Both the position numbers and the translations under genes were made by a program. From contig SVRW01000001.1 in NCBI GenBank assembly GCA_015064625.1, positions 132,884 to 196,883 on the forward strand: a DNA stretch of 64,000 nucleotides, read 5' to 3'. Of the stretch, positions 37,112 through 42,308 are shown piece by piece. The notes beneath the pieces are model-generated. The model saw nothing but the letters and a program-made list of their open reading frames with translations, was not told where the DNA came from and did no database searches. Origin of the DNA: Oscillospiraceae bacterium (lineage in GTDB: Bacteria; Bacillota; Clostridia; Oscillospirales; CAG-382). Every line of letters begins with the position of its first letter. Positions within the stretch are counted from its first letter, which is position 1.

Positions 37112-38773
37112 TCAGTTATGAGCTTCGCTCTGCTTTCTTATAGTATCTCTCTTGATTTTACCACTTGTTGTTTTTGGAAGCTGTTCCACGAATTCAACAA
37201 TTCGAGGATACTTATAAGGAGCAGTTGCCTGTTTTACGTGATTCTGAATTTCTTTCTTCAACTCATCAGAAGGTGTATACCCTTTTGCAAGAACTATTGT
37301 TGCCTTTATAACCTGTCCTCTTACAGGATCGGGAGCACCAGTTACAGCACATTCAAGAACAGAAGGATGAGTCATCAAAGCACTTTCAACCTCAAAAGGC
37401 CCTATTCTGTAACCAGAACTCTTGATAACGTCATCAGAACGTCCTTCAAACCAATAATAGCCGTCGTTATCACGTCTTGCTGTATCCCCCGTATCGTACC
37501 AATCGTTATAAAATGATTTTTTGTTTGCTTCTTCATCGTCAAGATATCCTTTGAAAAGTCCTGTAGGATAGAGCTTGGAAAGATTTTTTATAACTATATG
37601 TCCAACTATACCGTCTTCGCAACTCGTTCCGTCGGGATTGACTATATCAACGTCAAAAACAGGTGATGGTTTACCCGTAGAACCTGGTTTAATTTCGATG
37701 CCTGGATAGTTCGCAAGAATAACGGGGGTTTCCGTCTGTCCGAATCCCTCTGTAAGAGACAGTCCTGTAAGCTCCTTGAATTTGTTGAAAACTTCAGGAT
37801 TAAGAGGTTCGCCCGCTATAGAACATTGCTTTATGGACTTGAAGCTATCTGGATAATTTTGCAAATCCTCTTTGATAAGGAATCTGTAAATCGTAGGAGG
37901 AGCACAAAAAGTTGTAAGTTGAAGTTCAGCCAAAAGGTTCAGCGTATTGGCAGCATTGAATTTTTCGTTGTCGTAAGCAACTATAACTGCACCGCAAATC
38001 CATTGTCCGTATATTTTTCCCCAGGCAAACTTAGCCCATCCCGAATCTGACATGGTAAGATGAAGTTTTCCATCCTCAACTCTTTGCCAATATTTAGCGG
38101 TAAGAATATGACCCACAGGATAAGTATAATCGTGAACGATCATTTTAGGGAATCCCGTTGTACCTGATGAAAAATATATAAGCATCTCATCAGAGTTTTT
38201 ATTAGGTATTCTTTCAAATTTATCGGAATATGTGTAAGCTTCTTTTCTGAAATCGATGAAGCCTTCGGGGACTTTTTCGCCTACTATAGCAACATGCTCA
38301 AGCTCGTTACATTCGGGAACTGATTCCTTTATACTTTCTGTCAATTCCGCATCATCAACGGATATTATCATCTTAACGTGAGCTTTATTGCAACGATAAA
38401 CAATATCTTTTTTAGTCAACTGAAACGTCGCTGGGATAGCAACAATGCCTGCTTTATGTAATGCAAGGAAACAAAGCCATGCCTCAGGTCTTTGCTTGCA
38501 CATAAACATTACTCTGTCACCCTTTTTAAGTCCCTTATCCATTAAAAAGTTAGCAACCTGGTTGGAAAGGCGAGTCAAATCCTTGAAAGTATATTTTTTT
38601 CTGTTTCCAAAATCATCACACCAAACAAGAGCAAGCTTGTTTTCATCCTGTTCGCCCCATGCATCTGCAACGTCATACGCAAAATTGAATCCTTCGGGAA
38701 CAGTTACTTTATAATTTGATTTGAAATCTTCATATGACTCAAATTCTGTTTTTTCTAAAAATTTTTCTAACAT
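37112..38773 (-). CDS. AMP-forming acyl-CoA synthetase (ACSM/acetyl-CoA-synthetase-like, ANL superfamily)
   Basis: The ANL motifs are YFSSGTTGFPKM, GEPLNPEV, EGFGQTE, YDTGDTARRDNDGYYWFEGRSDDVIKSSGYRIGPFEVE and PKTTSGKIKR. Confidence 0.85.
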   Translation of the reverse strand: MLEKFLEKTEFESYEDFKSNYKVTVPEGFNFAYDVADAWGEQDENKLALVWCDDFGNRKKYTFKDLTRLSNQVANFLMDKGLKKGDRVMFMCKQRPEAWLCFLALHKAGIVAIPATFQLTKKDIVYRCNKAHVKMIISVDDAELTESIKESVPECNELEHVAIVGEKVPEGFIDFRKEAYTYSDKFERIPNKNSDEMLIYFSSGTTGFPKMIVHDYTYPVGHILTAKYWQRVEDGKLHLTMSDSGWAKFAWGKIYGQWICGAVIVAYDNEKFNAANTLNLLAELQLTTFCAPPTIYRFLIKEDLQNYPDSFKSIKQCSIAGEPLNPEVFNKFKELTGLSLTEGFGQTETPVILANYPGIEIKPGSTGKPSPVFDVDIVNPDGTSCEDGIVGHIVIKNLSKLYPTGLFKGYLDDEEANKKSFYNDWYDTGDTARRDNDGYYWFEGRSDDVIKSSGYRIGPFEVESALMTHPSVLECAVTGAPDPVRGQVIKATIVLAKGYTPSDELKKEIQNHVKQATAPYKYPRIVEFVEQLPKTTSGKIKRDTIRKQSEAHN

Positions 38774-38807
38774 TTTAAAATACCTCGCCTTTTATACTAT
38801 CCTATAT

Positions 38808-38836
38808 ATTATACACATATAAATCAAAAAAGTCAA
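38808..38836 (-). promoter_or_regulatory. sigma-A promoter of the acyl-CoA synthetase gene (copy 1 of a duplicated promoter module)
   Basis: On the minus strand this reads TTGACT (38836-38831), a 17-nt spacer, then TATAAT (38813-38808). It ends about 35 nt upstream of the ATG at 38773. Confidence 0.65.
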
Positions 38837-38867
38837 TACTTTTGCGGTCAAAATGTATTTTATAAGC

Positions 38868-38963: not shown

Positions 38964-39137
38964 TGAAAAGAATTGCCGTTAAAGTGTTCAAAAAATGTTC
39001 GTCCACTGCAGCTTTTTTAAGTGTTTTATAAAGTTTTAGGACTTTGAAATTGAATTTTAGAAAATTTGACATTGGACGGAGCAGAAAACCAGCTTAAAAT
39101 CTCACTTTTTCAGTGGGGTCATTCCGTCCCCTGTCAG
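38964..39137. repeat. B-type repeat, copy 1 (174 bp)
   Basis: The repeat begins TGAAAAGAATTGCCG and ends CTTAAAATCTCACTTTTTCAGTGGGGTCATTCCGTCCCCTGTCAG. Its paralogue at 41078..41251 has identical length, conserved ends and a diverged middle. It contains the stop codon of ORF 39134..40027. Confidence 0.8.
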
Positions 39138-40027
39138 ATGTTTGCACCCCATGAATTCAAATGGAGATCACAGCCAAAATATCCGCATAGATTCATTGGA
39201 GCAAAAACCAACTCATCAAAATAATTTTTGATGGTTGCTTTTCTTTTTTCCTGACACCGATAAAGGGTTTGAACTTCTTTAAAAAGACGTTTTTGATTGT
39301 AAGTCTCACAACACTCTAACTTCTTTTTAATAATTAAATTTACTCTCTCCGACTCATGTTGTTTGCAAAAAGCTTCAATTAGAATCGCCCACTCTCCATA
39401 TGATAATGACCATTCTTCATTCAAGCGTTCTTCTATTTCGATAATGCTTGAATACTTTTCGCATAAATAATAAAATATCACTCTATCTAATAAGTCCATT
39501 CGAGAAATTTGTTCATTGTATTGATTAGCGTTTAACCCTAAAATCAAACTCTTTTTGTCATACATCGCCATAGAAACGAAAAAAGGAAATATCATTTCGT
39601 TAGAAAGAGATTTGATATTTCTAAAAAGATAAAAGGCATTTTTATATTTTTTTTGCATAAACAACGAAATTGCACGATCGTAAAGAATATAGTCATTCGA
39701 AAGCAGTGAATAACAGGAGGAATAAAACTCATACGATTCATTATACTTTCGTTCATTAAAAAACACCTCACCCAAATTCATAAAAACAATTGCATTTTTT
39801 TGAAAAATTGATGCCTTTAATAAGTATCTCTTACCTAATGATTCCGCACACATTTCTTTTCCGCTTTTTGTTACGATTCCGTGTTGATATAAGAAAAGAC
39901 CTAAATTATTATAAGTTTGAAAGCATGGATTGGTGTTTTTATTGAGATAAAATAATTCTTGAGCAGTTTCAAATTCACCATTCAATAGCGCGCTCATTGC
40001 ACGCTTGTTTAATATTTCAGAATTCAA
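39134..40027 (-). CDS. hypothetical protein with TPR-like helical repeats
   Basis: The ORF is 297 aa. It starts at a TTG preceded by AAGGTAAACCA. Repeated amphipathic helix pairs (e.g. AIVFMNLGEVFFNERKYNESYEFYSSCY) suggest TPR-like repeats. I recognise no family. Confidence 0.55.
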   Translation of the reverse strand: MNSEILNKRAMSALLNGEFETAQELFYLNKNTNPCFQTYNNLGLFLYQHGIVTKSGKEMCAESLGKRYLLKASIFQKNAIVFMNLGEVFFNERKYNESYEFYSSCYSLLSNDYILYDRAISLFMQKKYKNAFYLFRNIKSLSNEMIFPFFVSMAMYDKKSLILGLNANQYNEQISRMDLLDRVIFYYLCEKYSSIIEIEERLNEEWSLSYGEWAILIEAFCKQHESERVNLIIKKKLECCETYNQKRLFKEVQTLYRCQEKRKATIKNYFDELVFAPMNLCGYFGCDLHLNSWGANI

Positions 40028-40114
40028 TGGTTTACCTTGATATTTTATTTTAAAAATTTAATATATTTCGGAATATTCAAAATATAGATATTTCATTAAA
40101 TGACAGGGCATAAA

Positions 40115-40291
40115 TGACAGAGGACGGTTCTGTGTCCGAAACTGAATTGTCCGAAAGTGTATTTATAAACGGCTTAAACTCGCGTTTATAGCAATTTAGA
40201 ACATGTTTTCAAACAACAGTTCGTCCACTGAATTTGCTATTCTTTTGTGAATTTTATGAGTTGAAATCTGACAGAGAACCGTCCCCTGTCA
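40115..40291. mobile_element. A-type element, copy 1: 177 bp with 22-bp terminal inverted repeats (MITE-like or invertible-switch-like)
   Basis: The left IR is TGACAGAGGACGGTTCTGTGTC (40115-40136). The right IR is GACAGAGAACCGTCCCCTGTCA (40270-40291). They are complementary at 20/22 positions. This copy differs at 9/177 positions from the copy at 40880..41056. It contains TTGAAA-N16-TGcTATAAA on the minus strand (40212-40185). Confidence 0.75.
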
Positions 40292-40366
40292 GATGGAGAT
40301 GACAGAGAACCGTCCCCTGTCAGATGGAGAGAACCGTCCCCTGTCAGATGGAGTCCCCTGTCAGAT
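40269..40366. repeat. nested, progressively 5'-truncated tandem repeats of the right-IR motif
   Basis: The array reads TGACAGAGAACCGTCCCCTGTCAGATGGAG (40269-40298), a, the same 30-mer (40300-40329), AGAACCGTCCCCTGTCAGATGGAG (40330-40353), then TCCCCTGTCAGAT (40354-40366). The TCCCCTGTCAGAT cores start at 40282, 40313, 40337 and 40354, giving spacings of 31, 24 and 17 nt. Confidence 0.9.
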
Positions 40367-40406
40367 TTGATAGGAGCACATATTCCTATAGCAGACCGGT
40401 GATTAC

Positions 40407-40802
40407 TCATCTTCCAAGGTTTAAATATCTTGCAATTTTAAAAACACTTTTGTAAAGAAAAATATCAAACGTGGGACCACTCGAGGAGAATTTGTGTCCG
40501 TTGTCGCCAATTAAATCGGCGTAATAATATCTTTCTGTAGTAGAGCGCTTTATTTCAAAACTATAACCATTGTTTTCGATGTAGTTGAGTAAATCTATTT
40601 CCGTTGCCAACCTGCTTCCTTTTGCAGAAACTTTTTGGTCTAATTCAGTAAATTTGCCATATTCAGGGTCATCTATTCCACCAATTATATAATTTTTTCC
40701 ATTGTAAAAATACACGCACCCAGTGTAACAGAGATGTTCATCTTCACCGAAGTTAAACCCGGCTTTTCGTAATTTTTCCATTGTGAATATACTTAAATAC
40801 AT
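40407..40802 (-). CDS. hypothetical protein (ORFan, soluble)
   Basis: The ORF is 131 aa. Its ATG is preceded by GAGGAA at 8-nt spacing. I recognise no motif. Confidence 0.55.
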   Translation of the reverse strand: MYLSIFTMEKLRKAGFNFGEDEHLCYTGCVYFYNGKNYIIGGIDDPEYGKFTELDQKVSAKGSRLATEIDLLNYIENNGYSFEIKRSTTERYYYADLIGDNGHKFSSSGPTFDIFLYKSVFKIARYLNLGR

Positions 40803-40879
40803 ACGTGCTTTTCCTCAAATTTTTAATATCAATCTAACGGGTCCTTTATGTTTTCCTGTGATAAAGTTTCCGGGTCAAA

Positions 40880-41056
40880 TGACAGGGGACGGTTCTGTGT
40901 CTGAAACTGAATTGTCCGAAAGTGTATTTATAAACAGCTCAAACTCGCTTTTAAAGCAATTTAGAACATATTTTCAAACAACAGTTCGTCCCCTGAATTT
41001 GCTATTCTTTTGTTAATTTTATGAGTTGAAATCTGACAGAGAACCGTCCCCTGTCA
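40880..41056. mobile_element. A-type element, copy 2: 177 bp with 22-bp terminal inverted repeats
   Basis: The left IR is TGACAGGGGACGGTTCTGTGTC (40880-40901). The right IR is GACAGAGAACCGTCCCCTGTCA (41035-41056). They are complementary at 21/22 positions. The internal motif TTGAAA-N16-TGcTTTAAA lies on the minus strand (40977-40950). Confidence 0.75.
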
Positions 41057-41077
41057 GAGCGTTCATGAGTTGAAATC

Positions 41078-41251
41078 TGAAAAGAATTGCCGCAATAGTC
41101 GGGGAAAAAATGTCCCCAACTATCGCGTTTTCATCTATTTTCCGTCTTTTTGAAAATGTGAAATCAATTTTGGCAAAATCCAACGCACAGAGAGACAAAT
41201 TATCGGCTTAAAACCTCACTTTTTCAGCGGTTTCGGACCGTCCCCTGTCAG
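41078..41251. repeat. B-type repeat, copy 2 (174 bp)
   Basis: The repeat begins TGAAAAGAATTGCCG and ends CTTAAAACCTCACTTTTTCAGCGGTTTCGGACCGTCCCCTGTCAG. It lies 11 nt downstream of the stop of ORF 41263..41538. Confidence 0.8.
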
Positions 41252-41262
41252 CTGGGTCACTG

Positions 41263-41538
41263 TCAAAACGGTAAAAGATGATTTCCTGATATAATAGTAC
41301 ATGTTAACCAAATAAAGCTAAAAATGTACGCGCCATCAATCCAATTTAGAGAAGCACAAGCCACAGTAAACAGTAGAGAAACGGTTCCTATGATAGCGTT
41401 TGTTATATACATTTTCTTGTTTTTACGCAATCTTTCTGTTAAATTATATTTTGGATCTAAATACTTGCGAAATAATATTAAGAAGCCTATGCATGCAGCT
41501 CCAAAAATGTATTCGCACTTTAAGAAATCGTTGAGCAT
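41263..41538 (-). CDS. hypothetical small membrane protein (3 TM)
   Basis: The ORF is 91 aa with three hydrophobic helices and a weak RBS (AGGT, 8 nt). I recognise no family. Confidence 0.45.
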   Translation of the reverse strand: MLNDFLKCEYIFGAACIGFLILFRKYLDPKYNLTERLRKNKKMYITNAIIGTVSLLFTVACASLNWIDGAYIFSFIWLTCTIISGNHLLPF

Positions 41539-41578
41539 GTAAAATTACCTGTTTTCCTCAAAGAACAATATATAATCA

Positions 41579-41607
41579 GGGAGACATGGGACGGTTCTAT
41601 GTCTCCC
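41579..41607. repeat. stand-alone hairpin carrying the island's conserved 11-nt loop
   Basis: The hairpin is GGGAGACAT-GGGACGGTTCT-ATGTCTCCC, with a perfect 9-bp stem. Its loop is the reverse complement of the AGAACCGTCCC loop in the A-element right IRs. Confidence 0.85.
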
Positions 41608-41653
41608 TTCCCTGCATGAAGATACTCCTTTAACCACCTTGAATATGAATAAA

Positions 41654-42088
41654 TTATTTTTCAACTTCCTTTAAACTTGAAACAAAAAGTTCACCGTAAT
41701 TGTTCTTTGAGAAGATTAACTCATAAGGAATTTCATTTATTTCAAATTCAAAATATATTTCTTCAAGCTCCAAAACAAAACTTTCTATTGTTTCGGGAGC
41801 TTTTGCCCAAAATGAATCGTACGTCCTTTCCAAAAATCCTTTGTCACTGTTTGGCTTGTAAGAGATTGTATCGTAAAATTCAACAAAAAAATTATTACCA
41901 TGCTTATTGATTATTTCAGCGTTGGATTTTATATATTCTTCAGCTTTTATCTGATAAACTTCAAGATATTCTCTCTCTTTTGTCATTATTTCTGAACTTC
42001 TGTTCACTGTGAATATAACGAACGCACTCATTATTCCAAACGCCAAAACGCATGCAACTACAAAAATGATAACTTTCTTATTTTTCAT
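41654..42088 (-). CDS. hypothetical membrane-anchored protein
   Basis: The ORF is 144 aa. It has an N-terminal signal-anchor (VIIFVVACVLAFGIMSAFVIF) and a good RBS (AGGTAGTG). I recognise no family. Confidence 0.55.
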   Translation of the reverse strand: MKNKKVIIFVVACVLAFGIMSAFVIFTVNRSSEIMTKEREYLEVYQIKAEEYIKSNAEIINKHGNNFFVEFYDTISYKPNSDKGFLERTYDSFWAKAPETIESFVLELEEIYFEFEINEIPYELIFSKNNYGELFVSSLKEVEK

Positions 42089-42248
42089 AATATCACTACC
42101 TTTCTTAATTAGGGAGATAAAGAAGACGGTCGTCTTTTTCCTTAATCACTGACTTTTTAAATCACTGTTTTAAACATGATTATTTAAGCTATTAATATCC
42201 TTGTAATACGATTCAGTCATCTTATTGATACACCTTTGTTACAAATAC

Positions 42249-42277
42249 ATTATACTCGAACAAATCAAAAAAGTCAA
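42249..42277 (-). promoter_or_regulatory. sigma-A promoter at the head of the ORFan island (copy 2 of the duplicated promoter module)
   Basis: On the minus strand this reads TTGACT (42277-42272), a 17-nt spacer, then TATAAT (42254-42249). It shares a 23-nt identical block, AAATCAAAAAAGTCAATACTTTG on the plus strand, with 38821-38843. Confidence 0.65.
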
Positions 42278-42308
42278 TACTTTGGCAGTTAAATACACTT
42301 TACATAAA

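Follow-up and report, generated by a model that had tools for sequence, protein, structure and literature searches.

A hairpin-ended 177-bp repeat in an Oscillospiraceae gene island as a probable non-autonomous relative of REP-type elements

What kind of element stands twice, nearly unchanged and facing the same way, in front of two small genes that are not detectably related? The question is raised by a 64,000-nt stretch of the Oscillospiraceae bacterium assembly GCA_015064625.1 (contig SVRW01000001.1, positions 132,884-196,883; hereafter the window), which contains two copies of a 177-bp element with 22-bp inverted ends. An earlier note on this DNA offered two answers: miniature inverted-repeat transposable elements (MITEs) like the Correia elements of Neisseria, or invertible promoter switches. 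From the element's ends, folding and borders, and from searches for it in other genomes, we consider it probable that the element is a non-autonomous doublet, comparable to the doublets of repetitive extragenic palindromic (REP) sequences known as REPINs and to bacterial interspersed mosaic elements (BIMEs), mobilised in trans via single-stranded DNA hairpins and accumulated in a 3.4-kb island. Bearing directly on this are the widespread repeat family to which the ends belong, the bracketing of Y1 transposase genes by that repeat, ends that fold into hairpins, sharp boundaries without a target-site duplication, and copies of the element elsewhere.

The two copies, at 40115..40291 (copy 1) and 40880..41056 (copy 2), give an ungapped alignment with 9 mismatches in 177 positions; a repeat finder sets the conserved unit at 182 nt (40112-40293 and 40877-41058, 95% identity). 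Their termini read TGACAG(A/G)GGACGGTTCTGTGTC and GACAGAGAACCGTCCCCTGTCA, complementary at 20 of 22 positions in copy 1 and 21 of 22 in copy 2, and enclose a non-coding core of 133 bp. Both copies face an open reading frame (ORF) on the minus strand: copy 1 lies 87 nt upstream of the start, at 40027, of ORF 40027..39134, and copy 2 lies 77 nt upstream of the start, at 40802, of ORF 40802..40407. The copies, their nine differences, the complementarity of their ends and their distances from the genes had all been given in the earlier note, and our recomputation returns the same values. The note had also described a direct repeat inside the element, TGTCCGAAA-N6-TGTCCGAAA; this is perfect in copy 1 only, as the first unit is TGTCTGAAA in every other copy.

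The gene-distal end of each copy folds on itself. In copy 1 this end (40270..40291, minus strand, where it reads TGACAGGGGACGGTTCTCTGTC(A)) forms a DNA hairpin of -8.0 kcal/mol (z -4.4) and an RNA hairpin of -17.1 kcal/mol, the latter with a CGG loop and a stem of 13 bp in which some pairs are G-U; the computed values for copy 2 (41035..41056, minus strand) are -7.1 kcal/mol for DNA and -16.2 kcal/mol for RNA, and z is about -4 for DNA and RNA alike. In the gene-proximal end (40115..40136, plus strand, TGACAGAGGACGGTTCTGTGTC in copy 1; 40880..40901, plus strand, in copy 2, placed by copy alignment and folding) a G replaces C at the variable position, and this end does not fold by itself, that of copy 1 reaching -1.8 kcal/mol with z near 0. 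The two ends are therefore non-equivalent. Whole doublets form one long hairpin (z -4 to -4.7).

The 22-nt repeat family and the transposase genes it brackets

The earlier note had advised a search for the 22-bp end and the 177-bp element beyond this locus, and both exist elsewhere. An exact-match scan with TGACAGGGGACGGTTCTNTGTC, in which each species was represented by one genome, finds the 22-mer in at least 119 stretches from at least 52 assemblies, mostly of Clostridia (individual comparison loci are cited below by L numbers). Carriers among the matches listed include Lachnospiraceae, Syntrophomonadaceae, Dethiobacteria and Eubacteriales, and the isolates Thermotalea metallivorans, Maledivibacter halophilus and Syntrophaceticus schinkii; among these matches many genomes have more than one matching contig, and several have from 7 to more than 15. 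Of the 141 instances scored, 122 have a stem closed by TGACAG..CTGTCA; in 68 the pairing continues for two or more complementary base pairs, and these differ from copy to copy. An inverted partner lies within 400 nt of 36 instances, with gaps that cluster at 12-30 nt (tight doublets) and at 130-142 nt. The instances are mostly intergenic, between co-directional or convergent genes, and within 150 nt of gene 3' ends the core, in its G-rich reading, is on the strand of the gene 55 times versus 20 times on the other.

Solo hairpins of the family have lower stems that are complementary but differ between copies, extending to 13 bp. At four sites of one Clostridia metagenome-assembled genome (MAG; JAWLCD01, loci L051, L038, L088 and L075) the 23-nt hairpin tips long perfect stems with 11-13 extra base pairs that are specific to each site, the one in L088 reaching -22 kcal/mol. 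Such contexts give the impression that the 23-nt unit entered the loops of hairpins already in place, terminators for instance.

Further matches to the exact 22-mer come from MAGs labelled Prevotella and Bacteroidaceae (the same locus, L010/L033), Desulfovibrio (L011), Deltaproteobacteria (L040), Methanoperedens (L019), Atribacterota (L026/L044/L045) and Saccharibacteria (L104). Its presence in MAGs of other phyla could be due to horizontal transfer or to bin contamination. Plasmid and phage collections gave no match, with 0 exact matches in 2.9 million viral contigs, and carriage by phage or plasmid was rejected on this evidence. Within the searchable literature there was no relevant paper with this repeat sequence, nor a description of such repeats in Firmicutes.

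The link to a transposase comes from L111, a 2.2-kb contig of an Eubacteriales MAG with three copies of the element, one of which adjoins a truncated transposase ORF of 60 codons starting MPRKARKK...YHAMIRGINRQQIF. A search with this fragment finds homologues of Y1 transposases in 11 of the at least 119 loci. Seven of the eight complete genes have the repeat core both 52-150 nt upstream, in gene orientation, and 4-264 nt downstream, inverted; a ninth, truncated where its contig stops, is preceded by the upstream copy. Two further loci were found via protein homology and not via the repeat: both have an upstream core copy, and one of them (L136) has the inverted downstream copy too, while the other contig ends 52 nt past the stop codon. 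Transposases flanked by the very same 22-mer in different genomes share only 40-55% identity.

The transposase proteins are 248-309 aa long, and all eight complete ones match Pfam Y1_Tnp (49-58 bits against a cut-off of 23) and carry HUH and Y-x3-NP motifs, the second being the signature that Quentin et al. (2018, PMC6006769) give for the TnpA_REP class, class 2. For the L067 protein (~250 aa) the top NCBIfam model is the REP-associated tyrosine transposase (RAYT) at 79.7 bits, compared with 18.4 bits for the IS200 model, and its only match among solved structures is E. coli TnpA_REP, 4ER8. The family comprises 4321 protein clusters at E<=1e-20, and some homologues are named 'REP element-mobilizing transposase RayT' by the Joint Genome Institute (JGI). 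The contigs of most of these genes measure only 1-2.5 kb, a sign that the flanking repeats may interrupt assembly. Several proteins give weak, sub-threshold matches to C-terminal helix-turn-helix (HTH) families (HTH_23, HTH_28, HTH_38, HTH_7); by these matches and by their length the transposases would fit subclass 2.1. PMC6006769 treats that subclass as equivalent to the 'TIRYT' enzymes (Di Nocera et al. 2013, PMC3733652) and to RAYT group 1, which has been reported in Clostridia (Bertels et al. 2017, PMC5581495). As judged from sequence, the partner enzyme is a Y1 HUH tyrosine transposase of RAYT/TIRYT type rather than a DDE transposase, and the 22-mer reads as the terminal inverted repeat of Y1 transposase cassettes, in the arrangement called REPtron or 'TIRtron', in many Clostridia.

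Copies beyond the window, their borders and their orientation

Beyond the window the element is known in six further copies. Three are in L111, one of them truncated by the contig end; L126, a 1.6-kb contig, has one at each of its ends; and L128 has a single, more divergent one. Copy 1 is 96-98% identical to the L111 and L126 copies, and the L128 copy aligns with it along the full length. The L128 copy, at an unrelated chromosomal site beside pheST, precedes by ~140 nt an ORF homologous (78% identity) to the 131-aa ORF that follows copy 2 in the window. When five copies are aligned end to end, identity ends abruptly outside TC/TGACAG...CTGTCA/TT (slashes mark the borders) and the flanks are unrelated. 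The earlier note had seen no target-site duplication, and we find the same: no direct repeat is present at the borders of any of the five complete copies (5/5), an absence explained by a partner enzyme of the Y1 HUH rather than the DDE kind. A metagenome scan with a 20-mer from the core gave two contigs, one of them a chance match. The locus of the two window copies is also present in the JGI metagenomes 3300031555, 3300032167, 3300024270, 3300018495, 3300018493 and 3300029705. Three independent metagenome contigs (L004, L005 and L006) end inside copy 1, at window positions ~40228, 40280 and 40257, as would be expected if the element were multi-copy in its source genome.

These borders bear on the first of the earlier proposals. 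A classical MITE of the Correia or NEMIS type would be a deletion derivative of a DDE insertion sequence, spread by cut-and-paste with duplication of its target site, and would donate an outward promoter. The 22-bp inverted ends that start with TG and finish with CA, the size, which is in the MITE range, and a promoter-like site that faces the next ORF all conform to this description, and yet we regard it as very unlikely, given that 0 of 5 complete copies have a target-site duplication, that the ends bracket Y1 HUH and not DDE genes in eight loci (which were not scanned for DDE transposases), that many copies of the repeat, as with REPs, either fold alone as solo hairpins or form tight doublets (gaps of 12-30 nt), and that the ends have no sequence resemblance to Correia ends. 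The target duplication of Correia elements is TA. What survives of the MITE proposal is a small, non-autonomous inverted-repeat element with the ends of a transposase-bearing unit; the assignment to the Correia class does not, the partner being a Y1 HUH enzyme.

Orientation bears on the second proposal, in which a recombinase would flip the 133-bp core between the repeats and turn the downstream ORF on or off. Inverted repeats do bracket a promoter-like site facing an ORF, and the size is near that of the Clostridioides difficile switches named in the earlier note. Against this, the window and six independent metagenome contigs (seven assemblies in all) are colinear and identical at the locus, with no inversion at the assembly level, where rare flipping would need raw reads to be seen; eight of eight copies, in four contexts, point the same way with respect to the ORF that follows; the Pfam-annotated part of the window (from ~14.7 kb) shows no recombinase gene; and the family that includes these repeats is dispersed through genomes and linked to a transposase. 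We therefore hold an invertible switch to be extremely improbable, and the proposal is set aside.

The promoter-like site itself is present as the earlier note described it. In copy 1 a putative outward promoter occupies 40185..40212 on the minus strand, with TTGAAA (40212..40207), a 16-nt spacer and TGcTATAAA (-10 at 40190..40185); at the same site in copy 2 (40950..40977, minus strand) the -10 is degraded to TTTAAA (40955..40950). The -35 hexamer TTGAAA is invariant across five aligned copies. The -10 is non-canonical: both hexamers are without the conserved final T, for which reason a consensus promoter scan does not list the element sites, and that of copy 2 is also without the A at position 2; the TG extension is lost in the most divergent copy, in L128. 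It is possible, from this sequence pattern, that the element core acts as a weak outward promoter. The strong promoter-like sites of the island are in a 49-nt repeat at its borders (described below), rather than in the element core.

One locus hints at how such doublets may form. At L128 3603-3805, an inverted doublet of ~200 bp lies between an Imm11 gene and the homologue of the 131-aa ORF. It is an internally deleted autonomous unit in which the final ~34 codons of the Y1 transposase gene can still be recognised (E 8e-5), and long-spacer doublets can therefore originate from such a unit by loss of its interior.

Taken with the family and its transposases, these observations suggest the following mechanism. 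Two inverted copies of the 22-nt hairpin-forming TGACAGGGGACGGTTCTnTGTC enclose the 133-bp non-coding core; a Y1 transposase encoded elsewhere in the genome would recognise the end when it is folded as a hairpin in single-stranded DNA, for example in the lagging-strand template, and would cut and rejoin DNA at that end via a phosphotyrosine intermediate. Such phosphotyrosine-based cutting and joining of single strands is established for TnpA of IS200/IS605 and for E. coli TnpA_REP. The doublet would in this way be copied or moved without target-site duplication, and copies would pile up between the cassettes of an island of orphan, probably immunity-type, genes. The end lying in the sense strand would put a strong RNA hairpin (-16 to -17 kcal/mol) into the transcript after each cassette, and the core may give a weak outward promoter to the next ORF. 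Mobilisation in trans, the single-stranded DNA chemistry and any transcriptional role are what we infer here.

Several points weigh against the interpretation as a REPIN- or BIME-like doublet. The comparison loci were chosen for having the repeat, so that only the geometry and the enrichment for transposase genes count as evidence, and not the presence of the repeat. In this genome, as far as the window and ~9 kb to its right extend (~73 kb), all repeat copies lie within 2.5 kb and are absent elsewhere, and so look clustered rather than dispersed; the same ~73 kb gave no transposase gene of this type. The seven assemblies are identical at the locus, with no insertion polymorphism, and mobility is unobserved; an empty-site comparison downstream of the 131-aa ORF homologue, between L129 (no repeat) and L128 (doublet), met unrelated intergenic DNA in which no target site is readable. 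When the 133-bp core was compared with seven full transposase cassettes (blastn-short, blastx) only the ends matched, and an origin of this core by internal deletion was rejected for want of similarity to cassette interiors. The NCBIfam score of the L067 protein is 0.3 bits under the model cut-off of 80. Finally, the tetranucleotide GTAG/GTGG that stands at the hairpin foot in REP/RAYT systems was not seen at any foot of the clostridial repeat, where the bases beyond the stem are not conserved between copies, and the published end motif of TIRtrons, GGGGWSAS, is matched by GGGGACGG at 7 of 8 positions.

The gene island and its smaller repeats

The repeats lie in a 3.4-kb stretch of ~30% G+C, in contrast to ~40% in the flanking genes, with an acyl-CoA synthetase gene (37112-38773) on one side and hydrogenase/GltD-type genes from 42362 on the other. 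This island consists of four small ORFs on the minus strand, for which the sole family assignment (Pfam, NCBIfam) is to TPR repeats in one. Its first gene is an orphan of 144 aa (41654..42088), followed by orphans of 91 aa (41263..41538; both from the ORF list and family search), of 131 aa (40407..40802, downstream of copy 2) and of 297 aa (39134..40027, downstream of copy 1), the last being the one with TPR repeats. Homologues of the 131-aa ORF (P0002 and P0003) adjoin Imm11 immunity genes, directly upstream of them, in two other contigs, and these neighbours make it probable that the island's orphan genes are of the immunity type.

Two direct copies of a 49-nt repeat (84% identical) border the island: copy A (38804..38852, minus strand) stands before the acyl-CoA synthetase gene and copy B (42245..42293, minus strand) at the head of the island, and each has the same minus-strand promoter-like site, TTGACT-17-TATAAT, matching at 11 of 12 positions. 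The acyl-CoA synthetase promoter therefore appears to have been duplicated at the island head.

The annotated part of the window, from ~14.7 kb to its right end, consists of housekeeping genes. Precomputed Pfam annotation of this part and of ~9 kb beyond shows no transposase or recombinase gene, and a tblastn search of the whole window with Y1 transposases gave no match (the first ~14.6 kb being checked by tblastn only), in keeping with the earlier note, which had seen no such gene. When the island (at a permissive threshold) and the whole window were compared with Rfam, the matches were sub-threshold chance ones to microRNAs and snoRNAs, apart from an unrelated RNase P and two tRNAs in the whole-window search; no known RNA family fits.

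The earlier note did not record the smaller end copies with which the island is strewn. With up to 3 mismatches, the 16-nt end core GAACCGTCCCCTGTCA occurs nine times in the 64 kb versus 0.11 times expected, a count well beyond chance, and 0 of 100 shuffles reach nine; all nine occurrences fall in 39121-41597. Next to copy 1, at 40292..40363 on the minus strand, is a 'stutter' of three progressively shorter partial distal ends (23, 17 and 10 nt; the partial ends span 40300-40363), each followed by the plus-strand flank GATGGAG; immediately outside its other end, at 40097..40108 on the plus strand, the flank and the first 8 nt of the proximal end are partially duplicated (TAAA+TGACAGGG). Similar stutters exist in other genomes, where 25 of the 141 scored ends have a second GACAGGGG within 45 nt outside; most are partial direct copies made up of a few outside bases and the first 8-23 nt of the end, of which the window shows four. 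Besides the window (40097-40108 and 40292-40363), stutters were noted in L101, L106, L109, L076, L061, L097, L065, L036, L021 and L111.

A solo end at 41206..41254 on the minus strand (end core 41235-41250) belongs to a second related module, D2, CTGACAGGGGACGGTCCGAAACCGCTGAAAAAGTGAGGTTTTAAGC, which has another copy at 39092..39140 on the minus strand (end core 39121-39136), overlapping the 3' end of ORF 39134-40027. D2 is also present once in L111 (1493-1546) and twice in L067 (2063-2191), and shares with the end no more than the initial ~13-16 nt, ...CTGACAGGGGACGGTTCGAAACCGCTGAAAAAGTGAGGTTTTAAGC; a related element may terminate in this module. Between the ORFs of 91 and 144 aa, at 41578..41608 on the plus strand, is a variant hairpin, GGGAGACAT-GGGACGGTTCT-ATGTCTCCC (-9.8 kcal/mol, z -4.1), in which the central block GGGACGGTTCT is kept, the outer stem is different and fully paired, and the strand is opposite to that of the other solo copies. 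Reading frames that run through the repeats (window 40237-40410, minus; 40783-41016, plus; 41019-41198, minus) encode ...TGDGSLS.../...DRGRFSV... peptides, and are likely to be spurious ORFs of a type that gene callers pick up in such repeats.

This layout allows two further explanations. One is passive duplication, whereby a regulatory intergenic spacer, hairpin and promoter together, would have been spread by homologous recombination or duplication of cassettes, not transposed as a unit, and would be bounded by REP-type ends by happenstance. All known copies of the element stand in arrays of small orphan ORFs and in one orientation, the repeat is confined to the island in the ~73 kb of genome, a direct repeat brackets that island, and no insertion polymorphism was seen among the seven assemblies, all of which such duplication would accommodate. 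It accommodates less readily that identity stops exactly at the inverted ends in five copies with unrelated flanks, that the ORFs after the copies are homologous neither to each other nor to ORFs of other loci (island proteins match no ORF in the other loci searched for ORFs behind copies, save the 131-aa homologue described above), and that the element is ~10 nt from the conserved 5' leader of the homologous ORFs in the window but ~90 nt from it in L128, a difference suggestive of separate events. We judge passive duplication unlikely.

The other is a cassette system, in which the ends would be joints for HUH-driven recombination, in the manner of integron attC sites, that capture, shuffle and insulate orphan toxin-immunity cassettes, each doublet supplying a hairpin to the upstream transcript and a promoter to the next cassette. 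One or more end copies do occur at each ORF boundary of the island, L111, L126, L128 and L067 are built in the same way, the ends form hairpins as folded attC sites do, and the lineage's transposase cassettes lie within polymorphic-toxin loci. Homologues of the 131-aa ORF are found, however, in similar neighbourhoods without such ends (L129-L131), which gives the ends the look of secondary insertions; integron core sites and an integrase are both absent, and no cassette was seen in two arrays with the same bounding joints. This explanation strikes us as quite improbable, and the non-autonomous doublet mobilised in trans remains the one we prefer. An integron attC site as such was rejected: AGAGAAC and GTTCTCT/GTTCTGT do not fit RYYYAAC and GTTRRRY, and the window's Pfam annotation has no integrase.

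The polymorphic-toxin loci in which transposase cassettes of this lineage sit are those of L067 (259-456), L136 (1200-1377) and L128/L129. One such cassette follows an RHS-type C-terminus (..AYCGNNPVMRFDPSGE), one precedes an ORF that by eye resembles a Hint domain (..TPEHPFWEMN), and others adjoin Imm11 and DUF4176 genes.

Significance and relation to known systems

At this locus, the repeats are to be read as repeat-derived hairpins and possible weak promoters between probable immunity-type genes, and not as a phase-variation switch. In metagenomes of rumen and gut Clostridia more generally, the repeat would account for a class of assembly breaks and flags a class of probably spurious small ORFs (...TGDGSLS...).

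The small, gene-adjacent, inverted-repeat elements of other bacteria offer a first comparison. Correia/NEMIS elements of Neisseria and MITEs of the DDE type (RUP, ERIC, bcr1) are likewise small, have inverted ends, are co-transcribed with neighbouring genes, may carry outward promoters and fold in mRNA, but they depend on DDE transposases and duplicate their targets, whereas the element described here shows no duplication and has a Y1 HUH partner. Closer in their chemistry are the palindrome-associated miniature elements derived from IS200/IS605 (for example Nezha of cyanobacteria), with Y1 reactions guided by hairpins in single strands (as we suppose for the present element) and no target duplication; they differ in having unlike left and right hairpins in subterminal position, in contrast to the terminal inverted repeats found here, and the model scores of the L067 protein given above separate its transposase from IS200.

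The closest likeness is to the REP, BIME and REPIN sequences of E. coli and Pseudomonas and their RAYTs (Nunvar 2010; Bertels & Rainey 2011, PMC3116915; Ton-Hoang/Messing 2012, PMC3479197). There too, short hairpin repeats occur solo, as inverted doublets and in clusters, mostly in intergenic DNA downstream of genes; inverted copies bracket a Y1 HUH gene with Y-x3-NP (an arrangement shown here in related genomes, the gene being absent from the window); no target is duplicated; and the doublet is the presumed mobile unit. The clostridial repeat differs in more than the foot tetranucleotide: REPs are described as species-specific (PMC6006769), while the exact 22-mer spans several classes of Bacillota; the doublet spacer here is 133 bp long, conserved and promoter-like; and the copies in the ~73 kb of this genome look clustered in one island, not dispersed.

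TIRtrons and their TIRYT enzymes (PMC3733652; subclass 2.1 in PMC6006769; RAYT group 1 in PMC5581495) share with our loci a RAYT-like gene longer than that of E. coli TnpA_REP, a C-terminal tail that may be HTH-like, and GGGG-rich inverted repeats, and their repeats, like the clostridial ones, make up moderately abundant families of singles, dimers and groups. Differences are that the taxa named in the text and supplements of PMC3733652 include no Firmicutes, and that Quentin et al. (PMC6006769) describe no REP-like hairpins beside subclass 2.1 genes, whereas the end found here is itself a hairpin of 12-13 bp.

The element thus belongs to a known kind, that of REP/REPIN-RAYT systems and TIRtrons. 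In the searchable literature, RAYT-associated repeats have been reported mainly from Proteobacteria and Cyanobacteria, and subclass 2.1/'TIRYT' genes have been accompanied by only loosely defined inverted repeats. To these the present locus and its relatives add one sharply defined 22-nt hairpin, identical across several clostridial classes and tied to the subclass 2.1/'TIRYT' transposase group, in solo, doublet and cargo-carrying forms; this hairpin is a concrete substrate on which cutting and joining of repeats by these enzymes could be assayed.

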